From assembly GCA_042573625.1 (NCBI GenBank), contig JBHPCZ010000001.1:12859-76858 (forward strand): a stretch of 64,000 nucleotides of DNA. Reading direction: 5' to 3'. Below, piece after piece: positions 18,419-33,995 of the stretch. A model generated the notes under the pieces. The model worked only from the letters and a program-made list of their open reading frames with translations, did no database searches and was not told where the DNA came from. The DNA is from Thermodesulfobacteriota bacterium. GTDB lineage: Bacteria > Desulfobacterota > Desulfobacteria > Desulfobacterales > UBA11574. Position numbers and translations under genes: made by a program. Position 1 is the first letter of the stretch; every line of letters starts with the position of its first letter.

Positions 18419-18889
18419 ATGAATTCCCAAGTGGACACTTCGCCGACCATAGAATTTCTTCGCTTAAGGCCGGATTTGGACGCAGATATACCGCTGCCCC
18501 GATATATGACGCCGAATTCCGCTGGGATGGATATTTCCGCCGCCATAGAAAAAGACCTTGTCCTTGATTCCGGATCCATTTCATTGATCCCCACCGGATT
18601 TGCTGTGGCCATCCCGGAGGGATTTGAAGCCCAGATTCGTCCCCGAAGCGGGTTGGCTGTAAAACATGGCATAGGGCTTATTAATTCCCCCGGCACCATA
18701 GATTCCGATTATAGAGGAGAGGTAATGATTGCTTTGATAAACCTCGGCAAAGCGAGCTATACCTTTCACCGGGGCGACCGGATCGCGCAGATGATTATCA
18801 AAAGAGTTTACCAGGCAAGATTAAAGGTGGTGGAGCAGCTCACCGAAACCGAACGGAATACCGGCGGTTTCGGACATACCGGCCTATGA
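18419..18889 (+). CDS. dut: dUTP diphosphatase
   Basis: Motifs SAGMDI, RPRSGLAVKHGI, GTIDSDYRGEV and GGFGHTG. Confidence 0.9.
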   Translation: MNSQVDTSPTIEFLRLRPDLDADIPLPRYMTPNSAGMDISAAIEKDLVLDSGSISLIPTGFAVAIPEGFEAQIRPRSGLAVKHGIGLINSPGTIDSDYRGEVMIALINLGKASYTFHRGDRIAQMIIKRVYQARLKVVEQLTETERNTGGFGHTGL

Positions 18890-19094
18890 ATATGTAATAT
18901 TTTAGACAAGATTTGCTGGATTAACCAGGTTTATCAATATACTGCCTGCCGGCGGATTGCCTTTTCCCATTTTCATCAGGAAAATGGGGGGAAAAGTATC
19001 CTGAATATCCTGTTGATCCTGTCAGAAAAGCCAATTCAAAGAGAACCGGGCTCAGCAATATATTTATTGACAATTCAATTAACTTCCAAAGTTG

Positions 19095-19916
19095 ATGACA
19101 GTTAAACATCTCCAGAAAAAAGAAAAACAGCAGAATCCGACTTGCAACCTTTCCGTATGTGTGCTGGGTAGCGGCAGCAAGGGTAACGCCATATTTATTT
19201 CAGACGGTTCCACCTCAATTCTGGTTGATGCGGGCCTTTCCGGGATCGAAATCGAACGCAGACTGAAATCAAAAGGGCTTTCTCCTGAAAACCTGGATGC
19301 CATCCTTGTCTCTCATGAGCATGTTGATCATATAAAGAGCGCCGGGGTGCTTTCTCGTCGTTTTGACCTGCCGGTATATATCAGTTGCAACACAGGAAAA
19401 GTCGCCTCAACACAGCTGGGAACAGTAAAGAAACTCAGGAATTTCGAGTGCGGCTCGGCTTTCAAAATAAAGAATTTAACCGTACACCCCTTCTCTCTGC
19501 CCCATGACGCTAAGGATCCGTCCGGGTTTACGGTGAGACTTGACAGCAAAAAGATCGGGATTGCCACCGATCTCGGCACTGCAACCGCCATGGTTAAATC
19601 GCATCTTAAGGATTGCGCGTTGCTGATTCTTGAAGCCAATCATGATCCGGCCATGCTTGAAAACGGGCCTTATCCGTGGCCCCTGAAACAGCGCATCAAG
19701 AGCAGGACCGGTCATCTTTCAAATGAAGCCTCCAAAATTCTCCTCAAGGAATTACTCCACGACCGACTCCAGCATGTGATCCTGGCTCACCTGAGTGAAA
19801 TCAACAACACGCCCCAAAAAGCCGTCAGCGTTATCGAACCGTCGCTGACATCTTCCGACACAAAGCTGCATGTCGCATTCCAGGACAGGTGCGGGGATCT
19901 GCTGCATCTCAAATAA
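19095..19916 (+). CDS. MBL-fold metallo-hydrolase
   Basis: Contains SHEHVDHI (HxHxDH) and downstream His/Asp ligands. ATG at 19095 is 3 nt inside the TTG-started ORF. Confidence 0.8.
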   Translation: MTVKHLQKKEKQQNPTCNLSVCVLGSGSKGNAIFISDGSTSILVDAGLSGIEIERRLKSKGLSPENLDAILVSHEHVDHIKSAGVLSRRFDLPVYISCNTGKVASTQLGTVKKLRNFECGSAFKIKNLTVHPFSLPHDAKDPSGFTVRLDSKKIGIATDLGTATAMVKSHLKDCALLILEANHDPAMLENGPYPWPLKQRIKSRTGHLSNEASKILLKELLHDRLQHVILAHLSEINNTPQKAVSVIEPSLTSSDTKLHVAFQDRCGDLLHLK

Positions 19917-20108
19917 TTTCCAGCCGGCGAGAAAGGCAGTTTTTGACGCCAAGACAATCGGAATCTTTTTTCCATATATTGATCTTTACCATTGACATAC
20001 ATCAATATATTGTATTAAGGGAGAAAAAATTCGCTGTTCAATCCTTTCTATAAAAACAGTCTTCATAAATTACAATGACCAGCCTTGCTTAGAAAGGTTT
20101 AAAACGAC

Positions 20109-21374
20109 ATGGCCCTAAACGTCGGATTTGTGTCTACCCGCTTAGCGGGTACAGATGGTGTGTCATTAGAAGCGAGTAAATGGGCGGACGTTTTTAATCA
20201 AAATGGCCACAGCTGTTTCTGGTTCGCGGGAAAGCTGGATCGGGACGCGGAAAAGAGTTTCATTGTCCCCGAGGCCCATTTTAAGCATAAAAAGAATCAG
20301 CGGATCAATGAACAGGTCCTGGGTAAAAAAGGTCGAACCCCCCGGGTAACCCGGGCGATTCACGACTTGAGGTCGCTGCTTAAACGTCAACTCCATACAT
20401 TCATTGATCGCTTTGGCATCGACCTTCTGATTGCCGAAAATGCTCTTTCCATACCGATGCATATTCCCCTGGGGTTGGCCTTAACCGAAACCATTGCCGA
20501 GACCCAGATCCCCACTATTTCGCACCATCATGACTTCTACTGGGAAAGAACCCGCTTTTCAGTGACCGCCATCAGCGACTATCTTCGAATGGCATTCCCC
20601 CCCAACCTGCCCAATATCCAGCACGTGGTTATCAATTCCGAATCTCAGGAGCAACTGGCACTTCGCACGGGGATATCGTCGGTCATCATTCCCAATGTTC
20701 TCGATTTTGACAATCCACCGCCGCTGGATGCTAACGGGACTCGTGTCTTCCGTAAAACCTTCAATTTGAAGCCTGATGACAGGATGATTTTGCAGCCCAC
20801 CCGTATCATACAACGAAAAGGAATTGAGCACGCCATCGAGCTGGTCAAGGAATTGAAGGATCCCCGAAACAAACTGATCGTATCCCATGATGCAGGTGAT
20901 GAAGGATTTGAATATGCCGAGTGGCTGAAAGAATATGCGGACGAACATGATGTAGACCTGCGGCTGGTGGCAACCCGCGTCGCAGATCCCTGGGGCAACA
21001 ATGGGGGCAACGGAGCGGAATACTCTCTCTGGGATGTCTATTCCTACGCTGACTTCATTACGTATCCGAGTATTTACGAAGGATTCGGCAATGCCTTCCT
21101 CGAGGCCATTTACTTTAAAAAACCGCTGTTGGTCAATCGCTATGCAACGTTTGTCAGAGATATTGAGCCCCAGGGGTTTGATCTGGCCGTCATGGACGGG
21201 TACCTCTCAAAGAAAACGGTTAAAACAGTTATAGGAATTCTGGAATCACCGGAGCGTAGAGAAAAAATGGTAAATTTGAACTATGAAATTGCCGCCCGGC
21301 ATTATTCATATTCCATACTACGGAAACAGCTCAATATCATTTTAAACAGTCTGGCGAGACAGTCTATTAATTAA
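20109..21374 (+). CDS. glycosyltransferase (GT-B fold, GT4-like)
   Basis: 421-aa ORF. The C-terminal half has the GT-B pattern (ADFITYPSIYEGFGNAFLEAIYFKKPLLVNRY), the E-x7-E-like region. Confidence 0.7.
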   Translation: MALNVGFVSTRLAGTDGVSLEASKWADVFNQNGHSCFWFAGKLDRDAEKSFIVPEAHFKHKKNQRINEQVLGKKGRTPRVTRAIHDLRSLLKRQLHTFIDRFGIDLLIAENALSIPMHIPLGLALTETIAETQIPTISHHHDFYWERTRFSVTAISDYLRMAFPPNLPNIQHVVINSESQEQLALRTGISSVIIPNVLDFDNPPPLDANGTRVFRKTFNLKPDDRMILQPTRIIQRKGIEHAIELVKELKDPRNKLIVSHDAGDEGFEYAEWLKEYADEHDVDLRLVATRVADPWGNNGGNGAEYSLWDVYSYADFITYPSIYEGFGNAFLEAIYFKKPLLVNRYATFVRDIEPQGFDLAVMDGYLSKKTVKTVIGILESPERREKMVNLNYEIAARHYSYSILRKQLNIILNSLARQSIN

Positions 21375-21510
21375 CTGCAAAAACTGAAATTCAACCTTAC
21401 ATCTCAAAATTTTAGTTCAAACTAAATCTGACACTATTCAGGTATCCATTACGTATCAAAGAATCCGTTACCATTTGATACTTGCAGATATCTGTACTTG
21501 TGGCCTGCCA

Positions 21511-21652
21511 AAAAACACTAATATATTGCATACGCATTCTTTATAGCCTGAAAACAAACCCCAGGTTAAAACTTCAATCCAAACATCCCACAATGTGGCA
21601 TTAACCGTTTGAAATAACATTCATTTTTGTTGACTCTCCGGTAACGTTGTGA
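21511..21652 (+). repeat. 5' promoter-region module, copy A (homologous to 30524-30669)
   Basis: Aligns by eye with copy B. Shares an exact 17-mer AAACATCCCACAATGTG (21581-21597 vs 30593-30609), the block TTCTTnATAGCCTrAAAAC, TAACCnnTTTGAA, and a TTGAC -35 box (21630-21635). Confidence 0.7.
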
Positions 21653-21711
21653 TTTAGAAACTTCTTTCTGAAACTATCACTGCGGTACATTTAGATTTGG
21701 AACCTACTGCT

Positions 21712-23907
21712 ATGAAACCGCTCCGGAGATTGCCACAGCCTGCCGACGCCATAATCCAGATTCTTATAGATAAGTCGTTTCTTTTTTTACTCTATAGAAC
21801 TGTTCTGCTTATTGTTTTTACCTTCTCTTTCGCACAGGCCGCCGAAGACCAGCCGGAGATACATCAGATGGAAGAGGTTACGGTAACCGCAACCCGGATG
21901 GAAAGAAAGGCCGTTGAAGTTCCGGCAAGCATTGCCGTTGTCGGGGAAAATGACATAAAAGACACCCGGATGTTTAACCTCAAAGAAGCACTGTTGGGCA
22001 TCCCCGGCGTTCTTATTGACACCCGCAACCAGGGCTACGATTCCCGACTCCTGATTCGGGGGGCCGGATTGAAAGCCAGGTACGGGGTGAGAGACATTAT
22101 GGTTTTGCTCAACGGCGTTCCGATTACTGATCCGGACAGCCTCTCCCGTCTGGATTTTATAGACACCCAGCTGATTCAAAGAATTGAGGTGGCCAAGGGC
22201 CCCAACTCCACCCTGTGGGGCGCTAATGCAGCCGGGGGCGTTATCAACATCATAACCAAAAATCCTCTGGACAGGCAGGGCGGCGTCTTTAAAATCGGTG
22301 CAGGGGACTATAACGCCCAAAATTATCATCTTTCCTATTCCGACGATCTGTCTGAGAACTTTTATTATACGGTAAGCGGAAGCCGCAGGCAGTCGGACAA
22401 TGACTGGCGTCGATGGAATGAGTTTTATACCAACCAGGGGGCTGTCCAGGCCGCTTATGTGTTTGAAGACGAATCTATCCTTGAAAACCACATCAGTTAT
22501 ACCAAAGCTTCACTGCAACTGCCCGGAAAATTGAACCAAACCCAGTTCGATCAGTACCAGCAAACGGGCGAAGCCCATGCGACCGATGGCCCCTGGCAGC
22601 ATTCGGGTAGATATTCTGAAACTTTCTTTTTCAGTTCGAAACTATCCAAAACCGTCGGCACTTTTGATTTCGAGCCCCTTTTATTTATCAACAGGTGGAC
22701 GCACCACCACCCTGTAACCGGAAGAATCAACGATTCCGATACACTCTCCTGCGGCACGGATATCCAGACAAACCTTCGGCATGCTTTCGGAAAAATGAAA
22801 GGGACGCTGACCGCCGGCGTTACCGCCCGGTTTGACAAGCAGGACACGGATTATTTTGAATATGCCGATGTGCTTAAGACCCCCGGCGGGAGAATTACTG
22901 CCACCCTTAGTGATACGCCCGGAAATTTGATCGAGATACAGAATCGCGGTGTCCAGCTTTACGGGGTGTATTTTCAGGAATCGATCCGGCCTTCAGATCG
23001 GTGGATTATCGACCTGGGTGTTCGGTTTGACATCATTGATTTCGATATCGATGGGACAAAAAGGGCCGAATACGACTATAGTACCGGAACGTACGTAGAA
23101 TGTCCGGACGCCGGTCTGACGAATTGCGGAAATTATCAGATCAATAAAACTTTTAACGACTTCAGCCCACGGGTCGGAGCGGTGGTCAAGCTGTCGGAAA
23201 GCACAAATTTGTATGGCAATATTTCCAAGGGCATTCAGACGCCCACCGAAGGAGAGATCAGCGAAAATCCCGATCTGGAACTTGTGGAAGTTGAAAACTA
23301 TGAAGTCGGTGTCAAACTGAGATATCCCGGATGCTCCCTGGAAACGGCCCTGTATTACTCTCCGGTAAAAAATGAAATCGTTAAGGTCGTTCAAGAAGAC
23401 GGCGATACCGAATACAGCAACGCCGGCAGGACCAGAAAAACAGGCTTTGAGCTGACAGGGTCCCTGGAGTTGATACCCCGGTTGACCCTGGGCGCCGCGT
23501 ATTCATTTACGCATTACACGTTCGAAGAATTCACAGAAACCATCAGGGTGGGTGCCTCGACGCAAAATATCGACCGAAGCGGCAACCGGCTGCCGTATAT
23601 CCCCGAGCATCAGTACTCGTTTTTTGCCGCTTACCGACATCCGTCGGGGTTGAAGTTCAAGCTTCAATCCCATACCTGGGGGTCCTATTACACCGACAAC
23701 GCCAATACCGAGAAATACAACGGATATGCTTTTATCACCGGCGTCATGATCGGGTATGAATGGAAAGCATTCAATATTGGACTAAACATTGACAACCTGT
23801 TTGACGAACACTATGCCGTGGAAGTCGAAAAGGACAGCAGCGGAATAAAACGCTATACGCCGGCCGCACCGAGAAGTTTTATACTCCGGGTTTCATACAA
23901 TTTCTGA
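21712..23907 (+). CDS. TonB-dependent outer-membrane receptor
   Basis: Signal peptide ending SFAQA. Plug region (EVTVTATR...VPASIAVV...LLGIPGV...RGAG) and a beta-barrel ending in a C-terminal aromatic residue (RVSYNF). Confidence 0.85.
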   Translation: MKPLRRLPQPADAIIQILIDKSFLFLLYRTVLLIVFTFSFAQAAEDQPEIHQMEEVTVTATRMERKAVEVPASIAVVGENDIKDTRMFNLKEALLGIPGVLIDTRNQGYDSRLLIRGAGLKARYGVRDIMVLLNGVPITDPDSLSRLDFIDTQLIQRIEVAKGPNSTLWGANAAGGVINIITKNPLDRQGGVFKIGAGDYNAQNYHLSYSDDLSENFYYTVSGSRRQSDNDWRRWNEFYTNQGAVQAAYVFEDESILENHISYTKASLQLPGKLNQTQFDQYQQTGEAHATDGPWQHSGRYSETFFFSSKLSKTVGTFDFEPLLFINRWTHHHPVTGRINDSDTLSCGTDIQTNLRHAFGKMKGTLTAGVTARFDKQDTDYFEYADVLKTPGGRITATLSDTPGNLIEIQNRGVQLYGVYFQESIRPSDRWIIDLGVRFDIIDFDIDGTKRAEYDYSTGTYVECPDAGLTNCGNYQINKTFNDFSPRVGAVVKLSESTNLYGNISKGIQTPTEGEISENPDLELVEVENYEVGVKLRYPGCSLETALYYSPVKNEIVKVVQEDGDTEYSNAGRTRKTGFELTGSLELIPRLTLGAAYSFTHYTFEEFTETIRVGASTQNIDRSGNRLPYIPEHQYSFFAAYRHPSGLKFKLQSHTWGSYYTDNANTEKYNGYAFITGVMIGYEWKAFNIGLNIDNLFDEHYAVEVEKDSSGIKRYTPAAPRSFILRVSYNF

Positions 23908-23918
23908 GGCAGACGAAA

Positions 23919-24551
23919 ATGCGCTACCGAAAAATCATCACTCTTGTTGCGGCAGTGGCCATCTCCCTGGCCGCCGCCACATACCGCTTTGGGGATTCAG
24001 CACACAGCATCGGTCTTGTTTCGCTCAAAGGCGGTAAGGTTAGACATCCCTTTGTTCTGAAAGGCGGGCAAAAACATTACAGCCTGATTGGCACCGCAAC
24101 CGTTCTCCCGCCCTATCGGGGCGATGTTCGAATTTCGCTCGAAGGCTGGCCTGAAATTGATCATGATATTTTTTTATCCGGACCGGTGATCGATTTCGAC
24201 CTGCATAAACTTCCGGAGTTACGGGACCGCACTCTTTACGGCCTCAAACCCCAAGACAGGATTGCTCTCTGGGTTCGGATACATCCTCCCGTATTCGACC
24301 CGGTGTGCCGTATGAAGGTCGAAGACGGATTCTTGAAATATCATTACGGATCCCGGCAATATCATTTCTGCTCGAAAGCATGCAGAAATGCTTTTCTAAA
24401 ACAACCTGAAAAATATACCGGCAAAGAAGGTGCCTGCGGGAAATACAACCTTGTTTTTCACGATACCAGATCTGGCGCACCGGTCTTGAATATGCCCGTG
24501 AGGTTCAAGGGAAAGGATAAAATGGATGGAAAAAGCCGGCACTCTCACTGA
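23919..24551 (+). CDS. secreted YHS/TRASH-domain metal-binding protein
   Basis: N-terminal signal/anchor. C-terminal DPVCRMKVEDGFLKYHYGSRQYHFCSKACRNAF matches the YHS (TRASH-like) Cys pattern. Confidence 0.7.
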   Translation: MRYRKIITLVAAVAISLAAATYRFGDSAHSIGLVSLKGGKVRHPFVLKGGQKHYSLIGTATVLPPYRGDVRISLEGWPEIDHDIFLSGPVIDFDLHKLPELRDRTLYGLKPQDRIALWVRIHPPVFDPVCRMKVEDGFLKYHYGSRQYHFCSKACRNAFLKQPEKYTGKEGACGKYNLVFHDTRSGAPVLNMPVRFKGKDKMDGKSRHSH

Positions 24552-25353
24552 AAAAAGTTTTTTTATCCGACATCGATACTGGATCATCGCCTTTTCAGCG
24601 TTGCTGTTTCTTCCACCGCTGTCATTTGTTTTCCAGTTTACCGGGGACAGCAACTTCTGCGGCACCTGGTGCCCAAGGATGTTTTTCGTATGGCGTCGGG
24701 GAATGCCAATTGGCGCTTTTTTAGCCTCTTTTTTAAGGAGCTACATGGGCGTTGCCCTTCTGTTCGGGATTCTGATCAGTACCTTTTTTTACAGCAGATA
24801 CTGGTGCAGCCATCTGTGTCCCATCGGGGGAATTATGGAGCTTGGCAGCACGTTGGTTCCGCGGTTTATAAAAATTAATTTTTCAAAAATTCCAGCCCCC
24901 TATTTCCGATACGGCTACCTGTCAGTCTACTTGATTGCCGCAGCAGCCGGCATCGGCAGCTTGTGCTGCGCTTACTGTAATTTTGCTGCCGTACCGCGGA
25001 TGTTCGGCGCCTTGGTTTCACCGGCGGACGTGACCTACTTTTTGAGAAAGGCCGGGCTGATCAACCTGGGCCTGGTCGTTTTCCTGGGCTTTATGTCCAG
25101 AGGAGGCCGAGCATACTGCAACCTGATCTGTCCAGTGGGTGCTCTGGATGCACTGTCAAACCGGCTGGGCAATCGTTGGGGAAAAAGGGTCAGGATTTCC
25201 GCTGAGATCTGTGACAATTGCGGCCAGTGCGTGGACAACTGTCCGGTATGGGCCATTGAAACCGGTGAAAAGACAAAAATCGATCCACATTCCTGCATCC
25301 CCTGCAGAATTTGTGAAATCTCCTGTCATAAAAATGCTATTGTTTATGAATAG
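24526..25353 (+). CDS. membrane-bound 4Fe-4S protein (NapH/MauN-like polyferredoxin)
   Basis: Several TM segments. Cys motifs CSHLCP and CNLICP, plus a C-terminal 2x[4Fe-4S] ferredoxin (CDNCGQCVDNCP, CIPCRICEISCH). Confidence 0.75.
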   Translation: MEKAGTLTEKSFFIRHRYWIIAFSALLFLPPLSFVFQFTGDSNFCGTWCPRMFFVWRRGMPIGAFLASFLRSYMGVALLFGILISTFFYSRYWCSHLCPIGGIMELGSTLVPRFIKINFSKIPAPYFRYGYLSVYLIAAAAGIGSLCCAYCNFAAVPRMFGALVSPADVTYFLRKAGLINLGLVVFLGFMSRGGRAYCNLICPVGALDALSNRLGNRWGKRVRISAEICDNCGQCVDNCPVWAIETGEKTKIDPHSCIPCRICEISCHKNAIVYE

Positions 25354-25497
25354 TTTTTCAGGAAGATGGAGGTTATGTGCACGTGTTGTTCCAATATCAG
25401 TTCAAGGAAAGTTTTGATAACTGCAATTACGACCAAGTATCAAGTATCAGATTTTTTGGTGATACCAGAATATCATATCACCAAGATGACAGGGATC

Positions 25498-25640
25498 TCT
25501 GAAAGTTAAAATATTTGTGATATTGTTTTCCGATAGGGCGAATCCATTTTGCGGGGTTTGCCTTTTTGATTTTTTGTGGATTACTCGATATGTATAATCG
25601 TGATAGCCCGGCTTCAGGTTGTGTTTATTGTAAGATATGC
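25498..25640 (+). repeat. 3' module, copy A (homologous to 31195-31340)
   Basis: Aligns with copy B across the terminator and about 60 nt beyond it. Shared blocks: TTGTGrTATyGTTTT, GGGCrAATCCATTT, GGGGTTTG, ATATGTA, GGCTTCAG and TTGTAAG. Confidence 0.7.
25537..25575 (+). terminator. rho-independent terminator inside 3' module A
   Basis: GGCGAATCC pairs with GGGTTTGCC (2 G-U pairs) around an 8-nt loop. Followed by TTTTTGATTTTTT. Lies between convergent genes. Confidence 0.6.
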
Positions 25641-25722
25641 CAAATTTGATTTCGGATAGAAACCTTCACTTTTCGGCAATTTAAAGTGTCACCATAGTCT
25701 ATGATCACTATACAAGCCAATT

Positions 25723-26628
25723 TTATTTTTTATATTGTCTACCACCGGAACCACCACCGGGACCGCCACCGAAACCACCACCGGGACCACCACCAAGACT
25801 ATCAATGGGGCTAGCATCGAAGTCGCCTGCCCCTCTTTGATCGTCAGTTTTCCAGGGTTGGGTATGTATATCGGAGCTAAGATTTTCTGCTCTTACCCCA
25901 TGACTGATAGCATGAGAATACTGGTTGGCAAGTTTGACTGGATCAGTGCTCCTGGAATGACTCATAAACGAATGGCGCAGCTGTTTCATTTCCTGGGTGC
26001 TGTATTGCTGATTATGTGCATGACACACTACGTCTTTTGCAATTCTAGATGAAACACCGAGACGGGCCATATCTCTGAGCGATAGAAAACTTTCCTGGGC
26101 AAGCGCTTCTGTGTTGGTTTTCGTTCTCTGTTGTGTTCTGTTCTGCAATCTATTCATGACCTGAACAGCATCCTTGTTGTGTATACCGGCTGTAAATCCC
26201 TCTGCAATAGCCTTCGTAATATCGTGTATACGATCTGTATTTTGCGTAATTTGTCTGGCATGATTATTTGCGATTGAGTAGCGATATCGTGTCCTCTCCA
26301 TTGCTCGAAGCACTAAATCTTGAGGAGCATTTTTGGCAAGACCCTCAAAAGCTTTATTCATAACAGGCTTAACCGGCAAACTTTCTTTTACAGTAGCCAT
26401 CAAGATCTGTTGTGCTCGTATGGTGTTTTGGTTCTGGTAATTGTTTTGTATCATCATTTTAGTCACTTTTACGGCTTCATCTCTATGAATACCAGCATTA
26501 ACCATGGCACGAGTATGGGTTCTGATCTGCTCGTTGGCTATTGTAGATAGTTCACGATCAACTTCATCCCCAAAAGCCAAGGATGCAACAAGGGAAATGC
26601 CGAATATGACAATTAAAAATTTTTTCAT
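25723..26628 (-). CDS. secreted helical protein with a Gly-rich C-terminal tail
   Basis: 301-aa ORF with signal peptide MKKFLIVIFGISLVASLAFG and tail GGGPGGGFGGGPGGGSGGRQYKK. Last gene of the ECF sigma operon. No family recognised. Confidence 0.6.
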   Translation of the reverse strand: MKKFLIVIFGISLVASLAFGDEVDRELSTIANEQIRTHTRAMVNAGIHRDEAVKVTKMMIQNNYQNQNTIRAQQILMATVKESLPVKPVMNKAFEGLAKNAPQDLVLRAMERTRYRYSIANNHARQITQNTDRIHDITKAIAEGFTAGIHNKDAVQVMNRLQNRTQQRTKTNTEALAQESFLSLRDMARLGVSSRIAKDVVCHAHNQQYSTQEMKQLRHSFMSHSRSTDPVKLANQYSHAISHGVRAENLSSDIHTQPWKTDDQRGAGDFDASPIDSLGGGPGGGFGGGPGGGSGGRQYKK

Positions 26629-26682
26629 GATTTCGTCCTATATTAAGGCTTTATTCTTTATAACGTATTTAGGGGTAAAAGG

Positions 26683-27009
26683 TTACATGTCCGGGACAAA
26701 AATACAATTTTCGGAACCAAAATCGTCCTTCTCTTTAAACCGACAGGGCGGTACATACACGATACCGTCTATAATATAAAAGTAAGTAAATTCTAATCCT
26801 GCTGGCATCGTCACCAACCAGGTCTTTGAATCAATTTTTTCTACCTGATGAAGTTGATATCCATCCTCTGAGGATGCAAATGAGACAGTATGTGCTTCCG
26901 GTTTTTCTAGATATATGTGTGTCAAATTTCCTTTAACTTGACAAAAATGGCCTGTACACCCCATTAAGCTCATTGCCAGAAATAAAGTTGCTGTAATAGA
27001 ACGTTTCAT
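26683..27009 (-). CDS. lipoprotein with a CBM48/AMPK-beta GBD-like (E-set) domain
   Basis: Lipobox LMGC. The C-terminus KDDFGSENCIFVP parallels PDDFGGENSIFYV of the adjacent anti-sigma factor. Confidence 0.6.
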   Translation of the reverse strand: MKRSITATLFLAMSLMGCTGHFCQVKGNLTHIYLEKPEAHTVSFASSEDGYQLHQVEKIDSKTWLVTMPAGLEFTYFYIIDGIVYVPPCRFKEKDDFGSENCIFVPDM

Positions 27010-27569
27010 ATTTTGTTCTTTACATAAAATATGGAGTTCTCACCACCAAAATCATCTGGCTCCCGGGTTAGTATCGTTGGATCAGCGAATGGTTGCTGGC
27101 CCTCTATCAAATAGGTAAAGCGATGCTCTCCTTCTTTCAATTCATAGGTGACCTCCCAGTACCCGCTGTTGCCGATTTTTTGCATTGGAACTCGTTCCCA
27201 TTCTGTAAAGCTCCCCGTGATCTCTACCTGGCTGACATTCGGTTTGTAAACTACAAATCGTTTCACTACCGGGCTAGGTATTGGCGACGGTACGGTAAGA
27301 AACAGATAAATAACTGTGGCGGCCAATGCCGATGTAACCAGACCCATCGGCTGAAAAAAGGGACTGAAAAATCTTTTCCAGCTAAAAGGTGTCATCACTT
27401 TAGCGGATGGAATATGTTCGACAACATCACTCTGGATGAGTTTTTCCTGATGCAATAATTCTAATACCTCATCGGTAAAAGATTTATCTTTTTGCATGGT
27501 TTCAATAAAATCAATTTTGTCATCAACGTTCATCTCATTATCAATAAACATGCTGATATTATAATTCAT
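27006..27569 (-). CDS. anti-sigma factor, single TM, extracytoplasmic CBM48-like domain
   Basis: 4-nt overlap with the downstream gene and directly abuts the sigma gene. One TM segment (GLVTSALAATVIYLFLTV). The C-terminal ITGSFTEWERVPM...GYWEV...LKEGEHRFTYLIEG...ADP resembles the AMPK-beta glycogen-binding module. Confidence 0.65.
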   Translation of the reverse strand: MNYNISMFIDNEMNVDDKIDFIETMQKDKSFTDEVLELLHQEKLIQSDVVEHIPSAKVMTPFSWKRFFSPFFQPMGLVTSALAATVIYLFLTVPSPIPSPVVKRFVVYKPNVSQVEITGSFTEWERVPMQKIGNSGYWEVTYELKEGEHRFTYLIEGQQPFADPTILTREPDDFGGENSIFYVKNKI

Positions 27570-28046
27570 TTAATCCTCTCCTGCCTGAAGAATCTCTTTT
27601 AGCCTGATACGGGCTCGGTGAACTTTGACTTTTACATTAGCCTCACTTATTCCGATTATGCTTGCAATTTCCCTATATGATAGATCACTGCTAACCGTTA
27701 GAGCAAGGATGTCTCTTTGGTCTTTATTGAGTTTGTGCATGGCGGACAGCACATTACGATACGACTCCCGCACTAAAGTCAGCTGTTCGGGGTCAATCGT
27801 TGTATCTTCGATGTCGTTTTCTATTTCTTTGTTGTACTTTTTTTTGCGAGCATTGTCCCAGACGGCGTTCCTTGCAATGGTGAACAGCAACGAAACATTT
27901 TGTGTCTGTGGACCATATTTTTCCAGATAACGAGTGAAACTCTCCTGCATTATATCGCTGGATAGCTGATAGTTGCTGGTCAAACGCATCAGATAGCCGA
28001 ACAACTTATCTTTTTGAGTCCAGTAAAATGGACTAAATTTATCCAC
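27570..28046 (-). CDS. ECF-type RNA polymerase sigma factor
   Basis: 158 aa. Region 2 (SSDIMQESFTRYL) and region 4 HTH (LSYREIASIIGISEANVKVKVHRARIRLK). Confidence 0.85.
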   Translation of the reverse strand: MDKFSPFYWTQKDKLFGYLMRLTSNYQLSSDIMQESFTRYLEKYGPQTQNVSLLFTIARNAVWDNARKKKYNKEIENDIEDTTIDPEQLTLVRESYRNVLSAMHKLNKDQRDILALTVSSDLSYREIASIIGISEANVKVKVHRARIRLKEILQAGED

Positions 28047-28055
28047 GATACTTTT

Positions 28056-28083
28056 ATAACGTACGAAACATCAAAAGGTTACA
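28056..28083 (-). promoter_or_regulatory. ECF-type promoter (autoregulatory candidate) TGTAACCTTTT-N11-CGTTAT
   Basis: The minus strand reads TGTAACCTTTTGATGTTTCGTACGTTAT and ends 9 nt before the sigma ATG (28046). It has the same motif and spacing as the plus-strand copy at 28228. Confidence 0.55.
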
Positions 28084-28227
28084 GAATTATTTAATTTCCA
28101 GATAATCTACAGTAAAGCTTATACTCTATAGTATATGTTCTTATCAATTCAATTCTACAGCTGCTTCAACGGTTGTGGCTGCTTTCACCTGCCAACCGAC
28201 CATTTATGTAATTTTTTTTTGATATGT

Positions 28228-28255
28228 TGTAACCTTTTCACACCCCATACGTTAT
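28228..28255 (+). promoter_or_regulatory. ECF-type promoter, divergent twin of 28056-28083
   Basis: TGTAACCTTTTCACACCCCATACGTTAT. The -35-like (GTAACC) and -10-like (CGTTAT) boxes are identical and the offset is the same 22 nt. Confidence 0.55.
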
Positions 28256-28659
28256 CAATTGTTAAAGGGTGAGATGGATTGAGAAAGGTCACATCACCTA
28301 CTTGTTGAAACTGATGCTGAATTTGTTTTAACTTGCTAATTCCCTGCAGCTTGCTGCAGGGAGATTCATTGATGAACTAAAAACATCGAAAGAGAAGTGA
28401 ATAGAACTATTTTTTATGTAAGGAGGTATGAATTAAAAAAGTATAATAAACGCTTAAATTATTCAACACTTAGTCTAATTATTAACAAATATAATGATGT
28501 TATATCAAGGAATCTGGATGCGACTTCGTCAGATAGCCGTTCTTTTTATTTGCTCAATTTATTAGCGAAAGGAGGTGAAAATTAAGGCCGAGGGTGTGGA
28601 AAGATGAAAGATGTCAGAAAATCCAAAATGATTACAACGAATTATATGGAGGTAAAATT

Positions 28660-29073
28660 ATGACGTTTCAATATTCCCAAAAGGTCATTTTTAGTGCTGT
28701 TTGTCTTTTCATGTTGTCTCTAACTGCTTTTTCTTTGGCGCCAAAAGATTGCCACGCTTTTGAGATTACGATTGATGTGGCTCCAAACGTTCTTTCTCTT
28801 CAGAATAATGGCCAGGTGGTGACTGTACATACAGATATTCCTTATGATGATGTTGAGCTTACTAGTGTGCATATAAATGGTGTGCTTATTGATAGCTGGG
28901 AGTCGGATGTTCGTGGCTACTTTGTGGCCAGGTTTGTAATGAACGCGATTAAAAACTTGCCTTTAGTTATCGGCGATTACAATACATTCACGTTAGTTGG
29001 AAAAACTTTTTCGGACGGAGAATTTTCGGGGTCTCAAGATATTCTTGTTGTGGAGAATGATCCGAAGAATTAG
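28660..29073 (+). CDS. secreted hypothetical protein (beta-rich)
   Basis: ATG at 28660 lies 6 nt after GGAGGT. Hydrophobic signal segment VIFSAVCLFMLSLTAFSLA. The ORF-track GTG start at 28594 adds a non-signal extension. Confidence 0.6.
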   Translation: MTFQYSQKVIFSAVCLFMLSLTAFSLAPKDCHAFEITIDVAPNVLSLQNNGQVVTVHTDIPYDDVELTSVHINGVLIDSWESDVRGYFVARFVMNAIKNLPLVIGDYNTFTLVGKTFSDGEFSGSQDILVVENDPKN

Positions 29074-29517
29074 TAACGGTGCCGGTCAAGGATGAAGTGT
29101 GTTCCGAAATAACCTGCTGGGATTAATTGAAATACATCGAAAATTAGATATAACAAAACATTCGAGAGGGACCGGGAACTTACCCAAAGAAAGCGGACAC
29201 CAAAAGCTAACTAACGGAGGGTGTCCAAATGGCAAGAATCAAAGGGCTTCAAAGCCCGTATAAACCGCGTTTATACCAGGAACCCAAAGGTTCATCGATT
29301 TTTCAAACGAACTGGAAATTTACGGATAGATCAACCCGCACCCCATGCGATCAACCAGGTTAATGGGATGCTACTTGAAGGGAAGATCACCGGGAAATGC
29401 CGCGGCTTTTTATCGGCGCCTTTTATCCATTTTTTTGGCTTTAGAATCGACCTTCGGTGATCGTTTCCCGGCCCCTCATTTCCACCGTTCAAAAAACAGC
29501 AATTCAATCAGGAAAGG

Positions 29518-29664
29518 ATGAAAAAACTTTTTTTGATCTTGGTAATCTTTGTATCGTTTACAGCGTTTGCTTTTGCCGGTGGTGACCAAAATCATGGCAG
29601 CAAGGGACAAGGCAGTACAGGTAGTGACGGACAAGGCCAAACAACCCAACAGCGAGGCGATTAA
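29518..29664 (+). CDS. small secreted Gly/Gln-rich peptide (48 aa), below the ORF-track length cutoff
   Basis: Hand translation: MKKLFLILVIFVSFTAFAFAGGDQNHGSKGQGSTGSDGQGQTTQQRGD. SD AGGAAAGG directly upstream. Classic signal peptide. Confidence 0.5.
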   Translation: MKKLFLILVIFVSFTAFAFAGGDQNHGSKGQGSTGSDGQGQTTQQRGD

Positions 29665-29791
29665 ATAATTCACTCAACAAAAAGGGGGATAAATGGAACT
29701 TGTGACGACGCCACTTCTTGAAAAATGGAAGGTGGAAAGTGCTGAGTTTCTGTGTGTACTGCCGTAAAAACAGGATTAGGGTTTCTTTTTT

Positions 29792-30010
29792 ATGATTAAT
29801 ATTGTCAGAAATAGAAGAGGTAGACGACCCAGAACAGCCAGACGGGCATCCTTAAGAGACAGGCGGGCATTCTTAAGAGACAGACGGGCATCCTTAATAG
29901 ATAGAAGGGCATTCTTATCTGTAGTCCGTATTCCTAATAGAAGAAGTGGAAGAGACAGAAGGAGTTGGTCTGACCGCAGAGGTGGCGTTGAACGCAGAAG
30001 TATTCACTAA
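29792..30010 (+). CDS. Arg-rich DRR-repeat small protein (coding status uncertain)
   Basis: 72-aa ORF containing RRASLRD RRAFLRD RRASLID RRAFLSV, then RRSGRD RRSWSD RRGGVE RRS. The RR periodicity continues past the DNA repeat. SD is weak. Confidence 0.4.
   Translation: MINIVRNRRGRRPRTARRASLRDRRAFLRDRRASLIDRRAFLSVVRIPNRRSGRDRRSWSDRRGGVERRSIH
29839..29943. repeat. tandem 21-bp repeats (4 good copies plus 1 degenerate)
   Basis: CAGACGGGCATCCTTAAGAGA / CAGGCGGGCATTCTTAAGAGA / CAGACGGGCATCCTTAATAGA / TAGAAGGGCATTCTTATCTGT / AGTCCGTATTCCTAATAGA. Confidence 0.85.
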
Positions 30011-30069
30011 TTGAAGTGAAACTAAATATCACTCCCAAGTGTCTTAGATAAAGGGTTTTGGAATTTACC

Positions 30070-30444
30070 ATGGATAGTAAGGAATTTAAAAGCTTCCGCC
30101 TAAAAATGAACAAGACGCAACACCAGGTGAGCCGTCTACTCGGAACGTCTATAAAGACTATACAAAGTTATGAACAGGGTTGTCGAAACATACCAAATCA
30201 CGCAGAGCGGCAGATGCTTTATCTAATTTCCAGGATGAAAGAAAGCCACAATACTCAAAAACCATGCTGGGTTATCAAACAATGTCCTCGATGGGTAAAA
30301 AATAAATGCCCGGCCTGGGAATTTGATTCGGGGGATTTATGCTGGTTTATTAATGGTACATATTGTGGTGGTAATGTTGTTGAGAGCTGGGAACAAAAAA
30401 TGAAACTTTGCCGGTCCTGTGAAGCTTTCTCATTCTTGAGCTAA
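30070..30444 (+). CDS. XRE-family HTH regulator with a C-terminal Cys/Trp-rich (two-CW-like) domain
   Basis: HTH is FRLKMNKTQHQVSRLLGTSIKTIQSYEQG. C-terminus is PCWVIKQCPRWVKNKCPAWEF..DLCWFINGTYCGG...CRSCEAF. ATG at 30070 preferred over the TTG at 30058. Confidence 0.75.
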   Translation: MDSKEFKSFRLKMNKTQHQVSRLLGTSIKTIQSYEQGCRNIPNHAERQMLYLISRMKESHNTQKPCWVIKQCPRWVKNKCPAWEFDSGDLCWFINGTYCGGNVVESWEQKMKLCRSCEAFSFLS

Positions 30445-30523
30445 CTCAAAAACACTTCTAATCATACAACGATACTTTCGATAATGGTTTGAAATCCTCT
30501 GTCCGAAACCTGTGTGTTCTGCA

Positions 30524-30669
30524 ATAAAACACACCAAATATTGTATTCGTCTTTCTTCATAGCCTAAAAACCTTGTACCACAACTCCTATAAAAACATCC
30601 CACAATGTGTGATAACCTATTTGAATTACTACATAAATTGTCATAATTTTCTTGACAACGTCACAATCC
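30524..30669 (+). repeat. 5' promoter-region module, copy B (homologous to 21511-21652)
   Basis: See copy A. Carries the exact 17-mer at 30593-30609. Confidence 0.7.
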
Positions 30670-30680
30670 TTGTTCATAAT
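30652..30680 (+). promoter_or_regulatory. sigma-70-type promoter
   Basis: TTGACA (30652-30657), a 17-nt spacer, then CATAAT (30675-30680). Lies about 120 nt upstream of the 30802 gene. Confidence 0.55.
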
Positions 30681-30721
30681 TTACTGTGGCCAATCTTTCT
30701 AATTCAAAAAAGGGATATAAC

Positions 30722-30808
30722 ATGAATTGTATCCCCTTTGATATCCCCTGCTTGCCATGGGGAGCGTCATTTAATTTAATCAGTAACAGAAAGGGGGCAG
30801 AATGTTAA
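30722..30808 (+). CDS. candidate upstream ORF / leader peptide (28 aa) overlapping the start of the next gene
   Basis: Hand translation: MNCIPFDIPCLPWGASFNLISNRKGAEC. AAGGGA lies 6 nt upstream. The stop TAA (30806-30808) overlaps the ATG at 30802. The region also folds into two hairpins. Confidence 0.3.
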   Translation: MNCIPFDIPCLPWGASFNLISNRKGAEC

Positions 30809-31152
30809 AAAAAATGTTCAAGATTATTTTTTTCGTTTTTCTGGTGGGGCTTTTGATTTCGCCGGCGTGGAGCTCAGACAACATCGTCATCGACACGGAT
30901 CGTAATTTAATTCTCGCTGGAAGCGGAGGAGGAGACCAAGACAGAGACCAAGACAGAAAGCGTGACGAATCTTGTAACGACCTCGCCCCTTACAACCCTG
31001 TTCATCCTTTAATTCTCGCTAGAGGAGGAAACGGTGGCAACGGCGGCGGCGGTGGCCACGGCGGCGGTGGCGGCGGCGATCAAAGCAGGGACAGGGACTG
31101 TGACGATGGTGACGGCCCTCAACCTGAAGGCCCTAACGGCCCCGGCACCTGA
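30802..31152 (+). CDS. secreted Gly/Asp/His-rich repeat protein
   Basis: Signal peptide ending PAWS. Internal duplication: LILAGSGGGDQDRDQDRKRDESCND versus LILARGGNGGNGGGGGHGGGGGGDQSRDRDCDDGD. SD GGGGG upstream. Confidence 0.65.
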   Translation: MLKKMFKIIFFVFLVGLLISPAWSSDNIVIDTDRNLILAGSGGGDQDRDQDRKRDESCNDLAPYNPVHPLILARGGNGGNGGGGGHGGGGGGDQSRDRDCDDGDGPQPEGPNGPGT

Positions 31153-31194
31153 GATTGTAACCCGTGACGGAACTTGCGACGACGCCACTTCTTA

Positions 31195-31340
31195 AAAACC
31201 TGAAAATGTTGTGGTATCGTTTTTCAATAAGGGCAAATCCATTTGATGGGGTTTGTCCTTTTATTTTTATGATATATGTAATCAGTAAGAGCAGGCTTCA
31301 GCCTGTGATATTTGTAAGTATCTGCAATAACCTGCAAATA
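31195..31340 (+). repeat. 3' module, copy B (homologous to 25498-25640)
   Basis: See copy A. Confidence 0.7.
31230..31267 (+). terminator. rho-independent terminator inside 3' module B
   Basis: GGGCAAATCC pairs with GGGTTTGTCC (2 G-U pairs) around an 8-nt loop. Followed by TTTTATTTTT. Confidence 0.6.
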
Positions 31341-31536
31341 TCAAAAAGCTGAGTTTTTCCAGATATCCATTCCATATTACAAAATGTAAATGTCAGATAT
31401 GGTTGTGTCTGCAATTGGATAAATGCACAATTAAATCTTGGTCAATGCAATTAAATCCACCTGAAAACATCTAATCCGGGTTTTAAATCCTAACTGAGCA
31501 AAAGCGAGTGCCCCTTTATTTTTAGAACCATTCGAA

Positions 31537-32643
31537 TTAAATTTTCACCAGCTCATAATTTCGACTTCCAAGCCCCAGCTGCTCGGCATATTCCAACTGA
31601 TACGCCCAGTCCACCTTGGGATAAACCCCCCGAAACTTGTCTTCACCCGGTTTCATGTGGGTCTGGAGACAGGACCCGGGAAGCGCGTGCTCCTGGTTGA
31701 CAAGATCAACGGACGCCTGGTCGATAGCTACCGGATCTTTTGATGCAACAACGCCGATATCCCTGACGATGGGGGCATCGTTCATGGGATAACAGTCGCA
31801 TGCCGGAGAGACATCGGTGATGAAATTAATCGACAACGTCTTTTGGGATTTTCCCTTTAATACGCCCATGGTGTATTCAATCATGTTTTCCAAAAAAACA
31901 GGGATCGCCTGGTTCCATTCTATTTCTATGGCGGCGCTGGGGCAGACAAGGATACATTCGCCGCAACCGATACACTTTTTGGCATCCAGCACTGCTTTCT
32001 CCTCGACCAGGGAAAGGGCGTTCTGGGAACAGTGACCGACACAGTCTCCGCAGCCGATACACTTTTTCGTAATGACCTTTGGCGCCACGGTTGAATGCTG
32101 CGCCAGTTTGCCCCGCCGGGATGCGCACCCCATGCCCAGATTTTTTATCGCCCCGCCAAATCCGGAAAGCTCATGCCCTTTGAAATGCGCCACCGATATC
32201 AGCGCGTCGGCCTCGACGATATCCGTTCCAATGTAAACTCTCTTAAAATTCTTCTGATTGACAATGATGGATGTTTCGCTCCTGCCCCTTAGCCCATCGG
32301 CAATGATAATGGGCGCATCCACCACAGCGTAGGCAAAACCGTTTTGAATCGCTGTTGTCAGGTGATGGGGAGAGTCGCTCCGTGTCCCTGAATAGAGTGT
32401 GTTGGCATCTGTAAGAAATGGGACGCCATTAACACCTTTGATCGTTTCGACAATTTTCCGTAAAAATACAGGCCGTATAAATGCGGTGTTTCCCATTTCT
32501 CCAAAATGAAGCTTCACCGCAACAAGATCTCTTTCTTTGACAGCTTCGGAAAGACCCGCGGTTTCAATGAGCCTTCCCAGTTTTGCGACAAGGCTTTCTT
32601 TCATCGTTGCCCTAAGATCGATAAAATAGACTTTGCTTTTCAT
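31537..32643 (-). CDS. DUF362 family protein with an inserted 2x[4Fe-4S] ferredoxin domain
   Basis: N-terminus (VYFIDLR...VAVKLHFGE.GN..FIRP.F) is typical of DUF362. Also CIGCGDCVGHC and CIGCGECILVCP. Confidence 0.8.
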   Translation of the reverse strand: MKSKVYFIDLRATMKESLVAKLGRLIETAGLSEAVKERDLVAVKLHFGEMGNTAFIRPVFLRKIVETIKGVNGVPFLTDANTLYSGTRSDSPHHLTTAIQNGFAYAVVDAPIIIADGLRGRSETSIIVNQKNFKRVYIGTDIVEADALISVAHFKGHELSGFGGAIKNLGMGCASRRGKLAQHSTVAPKVITKKCIGCGDCVGHCSQNALSLVEEKAVLDAKKCIGCGECILVCPSAAIEIEWNQAIPVFLENMIEYTMGVLKGKSQKTLSINFITDVSPACDCYPMNDAPIVRDIGVVASKDPVAIDQASVDLVNQEHALPGSCLQTHMKPGEDKFRGVYPKVDWAYQLEYAEQLGLGSRNYELVKI

Positions 32644-32833
32644 TTTATCCCCCGGTCATTTTATAAAATTATTGATATCATTTGCCAGACAATTGGAAAG
32701 AATTAATTCTTTGTGCTCAAAATGGCTTCATGCTTTTCTGTTCTTCTCCCTTTCTTTCAGCGTCTGTTTTAAAACCGCCAGCATTAAACGGTCCTTTTCC
32801 CGAAAGGCTTCCTGTTTGATTTCGATAAGGTAT

Positions 32834-33241
32834 TCAAGACTTAGAATGCGTAGAATTTCGATGATCTGCGGTACGGTTTCTTGCATGTTTCAGCCTGGTA
32901 ATGGATAACATATTCTGCTGTAATACGTTCAAGCACTCTGCCGGTGTTAGAGAGAACATCCAACGAATCAAGGTCAGATCAACCCCGTCTTTGCTGTATG
33001 CCGGATTATCTTCCTGTGAATATACGATCAAATGAGATGGCTTATCCATACCGCCTTCTTTTCCTGCCAAAATGATACAGATGTTTACATCAATTAGCAC
33101 ATACCACGGACAAACCGCAAATTGTTTATGTGAAGATCTGGTCGATGGGTCCAATGAATCTGCGCTGACAGGCAAAAAAAATGCAGATTGAAAATCGGTG
33201 CGCCGGATGCATACATCTTGCAATTTCATGAGGATATCCAT
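32834..33241 (-). CDS. hypothetical protein
   Basis: 135-aa ORF with no recognised motif. Its 3' end overlaps a 52-aa minus-strand ORF (32728-32886, MQETVPQIIEILRILSLEYLIEIKQEAFREKDRL...) by 53 nt, so one of the two may be spurious. Confidence 0.35.
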   Translation of the reverse strand: MDILMKLQDVCIRRTDFQSAFFLPVSADSLDPSTRSSHKQFAVCPWYVLIDVNICIILAGKEGGMDKPSHLIVYSQEDNPAYSKDGVDLTLIRWMFSLTPAECLNVLQQNMLSITRLKHARNRTADHRNSTHSKS

Positions 33242-33276
33242 ATAGTCAGCAGGTAAAAACTCAGCGAAGGATAAAA

Positions 33277-33978
33277 ATGAATATTAAAACTAAACTGGCA
33301 GTTTTGACCATCCTTTACAGCATCTATGAAGATTTTGTAAGCAGCTTTACATGGGCATGTGAAAAGCACTGTGCCCTGTGCTGTACACGCGGCGTGACCT
33401 TGACGACCATTGAAGGGTATATGATTTTGGAACATTTGGTTTCAAAGGGGAAATCGGATTTGCTCGAAAAGATCAGCGCCGCAGCGTCTGAAAAAAGATT
33501 TCAGCCCAAAATTACAACGAACAGGCTGGCAGATCTCTGTGTTCAGGGAAAGGATATTCCTGACGAAGAAACCGGTGACAGATGGGGAAGCTGCCCCCTT
33601 TTAGTGAACGATGAATGCCCCATTTACAAAGTCAGACCGTTTGCGTGCAGGTGTATGGTTTCAAGCAAGAACTGCCATGAAACAGGTTATGCCGACGTGG
33701 ATTCGTTTGTTATTTCCGTAAATAATCTGTTTTTTCAAACCATCGAGAATATTGACTCACCGGGCTTGTCCGGCAATCTTACCGATGTTCTTCTTTTTTT
33801 GGAAACTGAAGACAACCGGAAATATTATAGAGACCATAATTTGGAAAAAAAAGGCATCGAACTTATTCCCAATCAGCCTGTGAAATCACTGATGATTCCT
33901 CCTGAACATCGGGTTAGAATCAAGTCAATAATTGATAAAATAAGGCGTATCAATGTGCCGGGATCGTCGAAGTCGTGA
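33277..33978 (+). CDS. YkgJ/UPF0153-like cysteine-cluster (Fe-S or Zn) protein
   Basis: CEKHCALCC (CxxxCxxCC) and CPLLVNDECPIYKVRPFACRC. Confidence 0.65.
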   Translation: MNIKTKLAVLTILYSIYEDFVSSFTWACEKHCALCCTRGVTLTTIEGYMILEHLVSKGKSDLLEKISAAASEKRFQPKITTNRLADLCVQGKDIPDEETGDRWGSCPLLVNDECPIYKVRPFACRCMVSSKNCHETGYADVDSFVISVNNLFFQTIENIDSPGLSGNLTDVLLFLETEDNRKYYRDHNLEKKGIELIPNQPVKSLMIPPEHRVRIKSIIDKIRRINVPGSSKS

Positions 33979-33995
33979 CCGGCGGAGGACGGGGG

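Follow-up and report, generated by a model that had tools for sequence, protein, structure and literature searches.

The 64-kb stretch of DNA analysed here, referred to as the window, contains two transcription units of unrelated content that are framed by the same pair of intergenic sequences, a 5' module ahead of each unit and a 3' module behind it. The first unit, cargo A, is an operon for a TonB-dependent receptor, a YHS-domain protein and a Fer4_5/NapH-like membrane polyferredoxin, and the second, cargo B, is a single gene for a 116-aa signal-peptide protein that belongs to no family (Table 1); cargo and neighbouring proteins were assigned to families by means of Pfam and NCBIfam. These cargo genes are as the initial annotation of this DNA had described them, and the order and orientation that it gave for the two repeat pairs are borne out by pairwise alignment and BLAST within the window. 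The 5' modules (A, 21510-21616; B, 30526-30628) are 71% identical across 110 columns (E ~2e-7), and the 3' modules (A, 25515-25634; B, 31209-31318) are 72% identical across 122 columns (E ~2e-9). By BLAST, each flank has two copies and no third copy in the window, and with a two-sequence hidden Markov model (HMM) the 5' homology stretches to 21494-21665 and 30508-30690. The annotation had further held that promoter-region and terminator-region sequences are both shared. The latter part stands, as both 3' modules hold an intrinsic terminator hairpin with a T-run (25535-25564, -17.8 kcal/mol; 31229-31260, -16.3 kcal/mol). The former needs amending, as the conserved part of the 5' modules is devoid of -35 and -10 boxes and ends 5' of the sigma-70-like core promoter in both cassettes; what the two cassettes share on this side is therefore sequence upstream of the promoter and not the core promoter.

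Both 3' modules belong to one dispersed repeat family of ~175 nt, termed T2, whose one conserved structure is a Rho-independent terminator. The 21-base hairpin-core pattern GGCNAATCCATTTNNNGGGGTTTG matched 73 metagenome contigs (fetched contigs and loci carry L-numbers below), and conservation around it in those contigs reaches well past the pattern, over ~175 nt. Reading from the left, T2 consists of ...GATATCTGCTAT..., a short segment between CTGCTAT and TGTGATATCG that occurs in ~8-9 sequence classes with flanks conserved at >=90%, the box TGTGATATCGTTTTTCAATAAG (also conserved at >=90%), the hairpin with its T-run, an optional 13-nt insert, and finally GATATATGTAATC...GGCTTCAGGTTGTG...TGGCAAGATATC, beyond which all copies diverge. 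The RNAalifold consensus comprises the terminator stem alone, with 11 pairs kept in 33/33 aligned copies; the pattern used to select these copies spans the core of the stem, and the inner pairs are the same throughout, one pair having a compensatory change. The stems have energies of -16 to -18 kcal/mol. An HMM of 177 positions, built from 51 copies, gives 144 matches in 355 kb of fetched contigs of uncultured Desulfobacteraceae/Desulfobacterales, with up to 8 per 10 kb. The repeat sits 3' of unrelated genes and follows the direction of transcription, the nearest upstream open reading frame (ORF) being on the strand of the element in nearly all loci, and it is very dense in uncultured marine-sediment members of these groups. 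The proteins that flank T2, 41 distinct ones upstream and 39 downstream, have essentially no relationship to each other and represent 48 and 66 Pfam families, respectively, nearly all with a single member. Among them are sigma-54 activators, LpxR, pseudouridine synthase, methionine synthase, short-chain dehydrogenases/reductases and transporters, and they cluster with proteins of metagenome-assembled genomes (MAGs) named Desulfobacteraceae or Desulfobacterales. The initial annotation had proposed a cassette system with cargo replacement, while allowing that the modules might prove to be a repeat dispersed beside arbitrary genes; for the 3' module the latter is what was found, and the cassette system is not supported. 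As a working description, T2 is a terminator-bearing dispersed intergenic repeat. It would terminate transcription of the gene 5' of it, and its copies may act as recombination substrates that shuffle neighbouring genes. Among contigs that share one flank, synteny breaks at HMM positions ~12, 45, 73, 96-111 and 154-181, with some clustering near the right end; the breakpoints are spread along T2, and the pattern therefore fits homologous recombination among copies, which would account for the presence of T2 at the end of two unrelated cargos.

Several other features of T2 were considered. Rfam gives nothing at the gathering threshold in the window except one tRNA (6970-7042), and no relevant match at E <= 1 in 21300-31600 or in five T2-rich loci; neither plasmids nor viral contigs gave a match to T2. 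GATATC is found at both the left boundary and the right end as part of the conserved element, and there is no clean empty site among the fetched loci. To the eye, the hairpin regions on the left and right look like inverted copies of each other, but this was rejected, the score being equal to that of shuffles; small ORFs through the modules were rejected given that indels between copies break the reading frames; and a promoter inside T2 was rejected in view of the lack of enrichment for sigma-70-like motifs. A sigma-54-like TGGCA-N7-TGCA promoter at the right end was likewise dropped, as few copies have the motif by eye; the right end and its flank read TGGCAAG-N4-CTGCA, with sigma-54 -24/-12 spacing, in L020, L026, L055 and L001 (11520-11545). 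A second family of terminator-like hairpins, GGCAGGGTCAGCAATGGCCCTGCC with a T-run, has 14 sites in L018, L020, L027, L039, L040, L059, L064 and L078, often between the upstream gene and T2, and none in the window.

The 5' module appears, from sequence comparison, to behave as a discrete ~120-bp block, since the left junction of the island discussed below bounds it on one side and homology to an operon copy in contig L001, beginning at ~21617-21624, bounds it on the other. No further copy was found in ~600 kb of fetched loci with the two-sequence HMM, or in the GTDB representative genomes, which do not include the source MAG; the four Bacteroidales/Kiritimatiellota matches from the representative set are close to the ~1 expected by chance. 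The first ~55 nt of 5' module B resemble the left part of T2 (82% over 55 nt in L059, 94% over 31 nt in L071), and a local alignment of the module with a T2 copy has z = 8.2 and reaches the TCGTTTTTC box. The best-conserved stretch of the 5' modules, identical at 17/17 nt, contains the palindrome CCACAATGTG(G/T). Each 5' module may represent one of two paralogous ~120-bp blocks, made up of a degenerate left half of T2 and a CCAC-N3-GTGG palindrome. The idea of a single T2 split by cargo insertion was rejected, since HMM positions ~40-67 are represented in 5' module B as well as in 3' module B. As 3' module B also has the TCGTTTTTC box, the flanks are therefore two partial copies, not one split element. 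By eye, the 5' modules give no convincing match to a sigma-54 or ECF promoter.

The whole of this arrangement lies in a strain-specific island of 9.8 kb. Contigs L093-L095, picked via a glycosyltransferase >=90% identical to window 20109-21374, carry a single gene for a 694-aa GAF/PAS/HisKA/REC kinase where the window has the island, and synteny with them stops at 21492/21493 and 31318/31319. Window positions 10685-21492 and 31319-37274 match L093 1-11384 and 13668-19184 at 80-93% identity, and between these two segments the window and L093 have no sequence in common. The island takes the place of the kinase gene found in these close relatives. Its left junction, ...GCAGATATC|TGTACTTGTGG, is the start of 5' module A, and its right junction, ...TTTGTAAGTATC|TGCAATAACC, is the right end of the T2 copy that forms 3' module B; at the matching left and right points, L093 has GCAAGATATC and TTAGATACC. 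The operon has a G+C content of 0.49-0.51, compared with 0.38-0.42 for the ECF/small-gene part and 0.45-0.48 for the flanks.

Cargo A is also found in other settings. The copy in L001/L002 has 90% nucleotide identity to the window, confined to ~21624-25362. The TTGACT -35 box and the sequence following it are kept in L001, which suggests that the core promoter travels with the operon and not with the 5' module. At the position of the window's 5' module A, L001 (7473-7679) and L002 (1024-1230) have a truncated Y1_Tnp (IS200-like/RAYT-like) gene that ends ~20-30 bp before the operon -35, and 3' of the operon the T2 hairpin is absent, the repeat tail alone being weakly kept. The TonB receptor/YHS/NapH-like triad is conserved in L001, L003 and L005. 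In L003 (7553-13030) and L005 (7851-13615), whose copies are more distant and where the neighbours differ from those in the window, it continues into a ~62-aa ORF and ExbB-ExbD-TonB; exbBD-tonB is absent from the window and L001 copies of the operon. A NosL gene lies near the triad in L005. The operon, with its own core promoter, thus occurs elsewhere without these flanks. Given that finding, the uneven G+C content and the location of the junctions at repeat-derived sequence, the island would be a mosaic of separately acquired pieces that were joined at such sequence.

Table 1. Features of the island, with positions in the window
Feature	Position	Strand	Basis or remark
Strain-specific 9.8-kb island	21493-31318	.	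Synteny break vs L093
5' module A, promoter-upstream block	21494-21616	+	Homology to B; left end is the left island junction, right end is the start of L001 operon homology
Palindrome CCACAATGTGG, putative operator A	21588-21598	.	Centred ~37 bp upstream of -35
Sigma-70-like core promoter of the operon: TTGACT 21630, 17 nt, TTTAGA 21658	21630-21658	+	Read from sequence; below promoter-scan threshold
Cargo A	21697-25353	+	Pfam, NCBIfam
TonB-dependent receptor	21697-23907	+	Pfam, NCBIfam
YHS-domain protein	23919-24551	+	Pfam, NCBIfam
Fer4_5/NapH-like membrane polyferredoxin	24526-25353	+	Pfam, NCBIfam
3' module A, T2 copy, HMM positions 32-176, hairpin 25535-25564	25495-25638	+	nhmmer E ~1e-27
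ECF cluster, separate transcription unit without a shared module	25723-28046	-	Pfam/NCBIfam, promoter-like motif
301-aa secreted protein with Gly-rich tail	25723-26628	-	ORF/Pfam/NCBIfam analysis
108-aa lipoprotein-like ORF	26683-27009	-	ORF/Pfam/NCBIfam analysis
Anti-sigma with CBM48/AMPK1_CBM domain	27006-27569	-	Pfam/NCBIfam
ECF sigma	27570-28046	-	Pfam/NCBIfam
HTH_3 and two-CW-domain regulator (NF045718)	30058-30444	+	Pfam, NCBIfam; directly upstream of module B
5' module B: first ~55 nt similar to T2 left half, then operator region	30508-30628	+	BLAST, HMM, local alignment
Palindrome CCACAATGTGT, putative operator B	30600-30610	.	156 bp past regulator stop codon; ~46 bp upstream of -35
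Sigma-70-like promoter of cargo B: TTGACA 30652, 17 nt, CATAAT 30680	30652-30680	+	Promoter scan; 11/12 matches
Cargo B: 116-aa signal-peptide protein, Gly/Asp/Arg/His-rich, no family	30802-31152	+	Pfam/NCBIfam, database search
3' module B, T2 copy, HMM positions 27-172, hairpin 31229-31260	31185-31318	+	nhmmer E ~1e-27; right end is the right island junction

A possible connection between the two cargos comes from the helix-turn-helix (HTH)/two-CW regulator encoded by the island. The protein has an HTH_3 domain (PF01381, E 3.8e-5) and a two-CW domain (NF045718, 46.3 bits with a cutoff of 35) and belongs to a family of >1,100 homologues; across nine aligned two-CW regulators, seven Cys and the CW, PAWEF and CWFINGT motifs are invariant. 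The window has two CCAC-N3-GTG sites, one in each 5' module and each within the 17-nt identical block. The same site stands 45-133 bp upstream of 5/5 regulator homologues (52-66% identical; P ~2e-7). In L083, L084, L090 and L091 (57-64% identical) it is the sole CCAC-N3-GTG in 8-10 kb and is located 56-95 bp upstream of the regulator homologue, lying between a TTGACA -35 and the -10 region in the last three, with L083 having no clear -35; the fifth contig, L075, has three sites upstream of a 52%-identical homologue. Other versions of the palindrome are present in L042, between TTGACA and TATTAT, and in L054, L062 and L020, directly after the right end of T2. The palindrome region lacks a stable fold at the RNA level, and this speaks for a DNA site. 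The palindrome is thus a putative operator of the island's regulator. Judging from the palindrome in the five homologue promoters and the two sites in the window, the regulator may bind both modules and couple the uptake operon to the 116-aa gene, acting through sites ~37 and ~46 bp upstream of their -35 boxes. The co-regulation of the cargos that the initial annotation put forward is plausible to that extent: the shared palindrome matches the homologue-promoter site, and the argument is a comparative one.

The metal or redox theme that was suggested at the same time is plausible from gene content. A role in metal, Fe-S or redox sensing is probable for the domain with the seven invariant Cys; literature searches found nothing relevant on a published function of the two-CW domain (NF045718). 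Genes related to redox, thiol, Fe-S or metal functions adjoin two-CW regulators in L084 (5001-5979), L090 (4001-5911), L091 (3397-7640) and L075 (~365-2504). These neighbours include FmdE and Mo-cofactor genes, HdrD-like Fer4_8+CCG pairs, MOSC, cysteine synthase and thioredoxin, as well as a DUF1326-like gene recognized by eye, and they hint at what the Cys-rich domain senses.

The extracytoplasmic function (ECF) sigma cluster, which the initial annotation placed with its Gly-rich products in one co-regulated system, is tied to the two cassettes by its position in the island alone. It contains neither a 5' or 3' module nor the CCAC-N3-GTG palindrome and has an ECF-type promoter-like motif of its own (GTAACC, ~15 nt, CGTTA) upstream of 28046 that is unrelated to the modules, and the single system is accordingly not supported. 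The cluster also differs from the operon in G+C content (0.38-0.42 vs 0.49-0.51), and the TonB/YHS/Fer4 operon occurs in other genomes without it. A dispersed palindrome resembling repetitive extragenic palindromic (REP) sequences, TTAACTTGCTAATTCCCTGCAGCTTGCTGCAGGGAGATTCATT, is located at 28321-28373, where the ECF operon and a 159-aa gene diverge; palindromes of this type are also present in L093 (15080-15132, 18694-18729 and 18791-18827), L030 (~3707-3840) and L042 (~1320-1344).

Among the small genes of the island, the 116-aa protein has as its sole database match an identical NCBI entry (ACFL03_00215). A 30-nt repeat, GGAACTTG(T/C)GACGACGCCACTTCTT(G/A)AAAA, occurs at 29695-29724 and 31169-31198 with 93% identity; it starts 31 nt past the stop of a gene for a 48-aa secreted Gly/Gln-rich protein (29518-29664) and 17 nt past the stop of the 116-aa gene, and it is more conserved than the two genes themselves. 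An Arg/Asp-rich 'DRR' ORF at 29792-30010 is made of three 21-nt tandem units, and similar DRRSG-type C-terminal peptides end just 5' of T2 copies in L024/L041 and L039/L043. Outside the island, direct repeats with a 126-nt period (42 codons) at 58491-60039 probably mark a beta-propeller/WD40-like repeat gene.

When these data are combined, the locus is probably a strain-specific mosaic island whose transcription units are punctuated by repeat-derived intergenic modules common in the lineage, with a regulator operator shared in addition. Several observations weigh against this interpretation. The region upstream of the window's own regulator gene is without the site that is present in all five homologues; the site overlaps the promoter in the homologues, but in the window both sites are located 5' of the -35; and the paralogy of the modules means that the two window sites do not count as independent. 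A 17-nt identical run in modules that are 71% identical is by itself only weakly improbable (estimate ~0.1). T2 itself has 2 copies in the 64-kb window and 0 in 19 kb of the relative L093.

Among the alternatives, T2 could be a non-autonomous transposable element, either a miniature inverted-repeat transposable element (MITE) or a palindrome-associated transposable element (PATE) of the IS200/IS605 type, with the 3' modules as independent intergenic insertions. Its length of ~175 nt, high copy number and location beside arbitrary genes would agree with this, as would the fixed outer ends shared by truncated copies (HMM ~2-11 and 175-176) and the truncated Y1_Tnp gene that abuts the operon in L001/L002. 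However, T2 has no terminal inverted repeats (mean of 10.9 for the left end against the reverse-complemented right end, and 10.8 for shuffles), there is no clean pair of filled and empty sites among the fetched loci, the comparison of L001 with the window being one of segment replacement and not insertion, and the orientation is always that of transcription. Moreover, tblastn with the L001 Y1_Tnp fragment detected no other Y1 transposase in ~500 kb of T2-rich DNA, and the transposon explanation is judged unlikely. A multicopy small RNA (sRNA) gene of ~80-100 nt, with a variable 5' part, the TGTGATATCGTTTTTCAATAAG box and its own terminator, in which case T2 would not supply the terminators of the cargos, is the least probable of the explanations and can be given very little credence. 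It draws on the presence at many loci of the other terminator, GGCAGGGTCAGCAATGGCCCTGCC, already between the upstream gene and T2, which would make T2 redundant as a terminator there, and on the ~8-9 classes of the CTGCTAT-to-TGTGATATCG segment between flanks conserved at >=90%. Yet T2 has no consistent promoter (55 sigma-70-like promoters vs 76 in shuffles, with the sole recurrent candidate starting at the hairpin itself), no conserved structure or covariation beyond the terminator and no Rfam match, and copy B in the window follows the cargo stop by ~30 nt with no other terminator between.

The remaining alternatives concern gene exchange. In one, T2 bounds integron-like exchangeable cassettes, a site-specific recombinase acting at ...AAGATATC|TGC swaps genes between elements, and the two cassettes of the window and the replacement of the kinase gene by the island are products of such a system. 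Both island junctions, in comparison with L093, directly follow a AAGATATC-like motif, the conserved right end of T2 at which copies diverge; T2 is co-oriented with genes and recurs every 1-5 kb in some contigs; and one and the same right or left flank has different partners from contig to contig. On the other hand, the breakpoints fall along the whole element, which fits homologous recombination, ordinary housekeeping genes are among those that flank T2, GTTRRRY/RYYYAAC core sites are not to be seen, the imperfect palindrome being the 11-bp terminator stem alone, and no recombinase is consistently linked, with one phage-integrase and one IS110 match among 65 flanking proteins. Such cassettes are considered improbable. 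A bolder version, in which T2 is the footprint of an undescribed mechanism that sets an oriented 'terminator cassette' after genes and exchanges genes at the ...AAGATATC|TGC junction, is speculative and rather unlikely; it would account for the density of T2 in uncultured Desulfobacteraceae, about one per 2.5-5 kb, and for the replacement of the kinase gene by the 9.8-kb island exactly at such junctions.

The mosaic island with repeat-derived punctuation has several implications. For annotation, conserved sequence on both sides of unrelated genes is here repeat-derived punctuation and not proof of a functional cassette system. An abundant terminator-bearing repeat family in uncultured marine Desulfobacteraceae bears on assembly breaks in MAGs, synteny analysis and terminator prediction. 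The candidate operator CCAC-N3-GTGG would make the regulon of the HTH/two-CW family, with its >1,100 homologues, predictable by computation, and there is a candidate link between a Cys-rich regulator and a conserved, unstudied TonB-receptor/YHS/NapH-like uptake operon.

Compared with known systems, T2 has most in common with REP sequences and bacterial interspersed mosaic elements (BIMEs) and with enterobacterial repetitive intergenic consensus (ERIC) sequences, or intergenic repeat units (IRUs), all of them short, dispersed, non-coding intergenic repeats with a hairpin. Like REP, BIME and ERIC elements, T2 is multicopy, is located between unrelated genes, often 3' of genes, has a hairpin and a mosaic make-up and would serve as a substrate for rearrangement. 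Unlike REP/BIME, it is longer (~175 nt), has an intrinsic terminator complete with its T-run and always points in the direction of transcription, and it has neither the REP doublet structure nor a linked RAYT; populations of REPINs have been reviewed (PMC8049555). T2 appears to be an undescribed family, since it has no Rfam, plasmid or viral match and nothing came up in limited literature searches, which likewise found nothing relevant on Desulfobacter* repeats. Loci with T2 resemble integron cassettes in that unrelated, co-oriented genes are each followed by the repeat, which is joined to different neighbours between strains. In contrast to attC, T2 has no core sites by eye on the alignment, the nearest, GTTGTGC, being without a complementary partner, and its pairing is the terminator stem. 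No intI was seen, with no systematic search made, and there is one Phage_integrase match among 30 downstream proteins. Also unlike integron cassettes, the breakpoints are not at one position, and the flanking genes have their own promoters, many being housekeeping genes.

For the 5' modules, the closest parallel is with putative mobile promoters, i.e. homologous promoter-region sequences that, in a single genome, precede genes without homology to each other (Matus-Garcia et al. 2012, PMC3488235). The largest such family, of 93 promoters, is that of the sulphur-reducer Desulfurivibrio alkaliphilus (PMC3488235), so the pattern has precedent among sulphur-cycling anaerobes. Mobile promoters were defined by >=50 nt at >=80% identity and by non-homologous upstream and downstream coding sequences (PMC3488235). 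The coding sequences on both sides of the 5' modules are non-homologous, but the best 50-column window has 37/50 = 74% identity, under the threshold, and the pair is at most a distant member (E < 1e-4). The modules also differ from mobile promoters in lying farther from the start codon and in having a candidate operator in place of -35/-10 boxes. A further parallel is with those XRE-family regulators that have palindromic operators in their own promoters. The two-CW regulator is similar in its N-terminal HTH_3 domain and, among its homologues, in the CCAC-N3-GTGG inverted repeat over the -35/-10 of the regulator's own gene, and it is different in its C-terminal two-CW domain and in the position of the sites in the window, which precede two other promoters and not its own. 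In this light, the finding is mostly ordinary repeat biology together with a plausible shared operator, with a repeat family and an operator that both appear to be undescribed.

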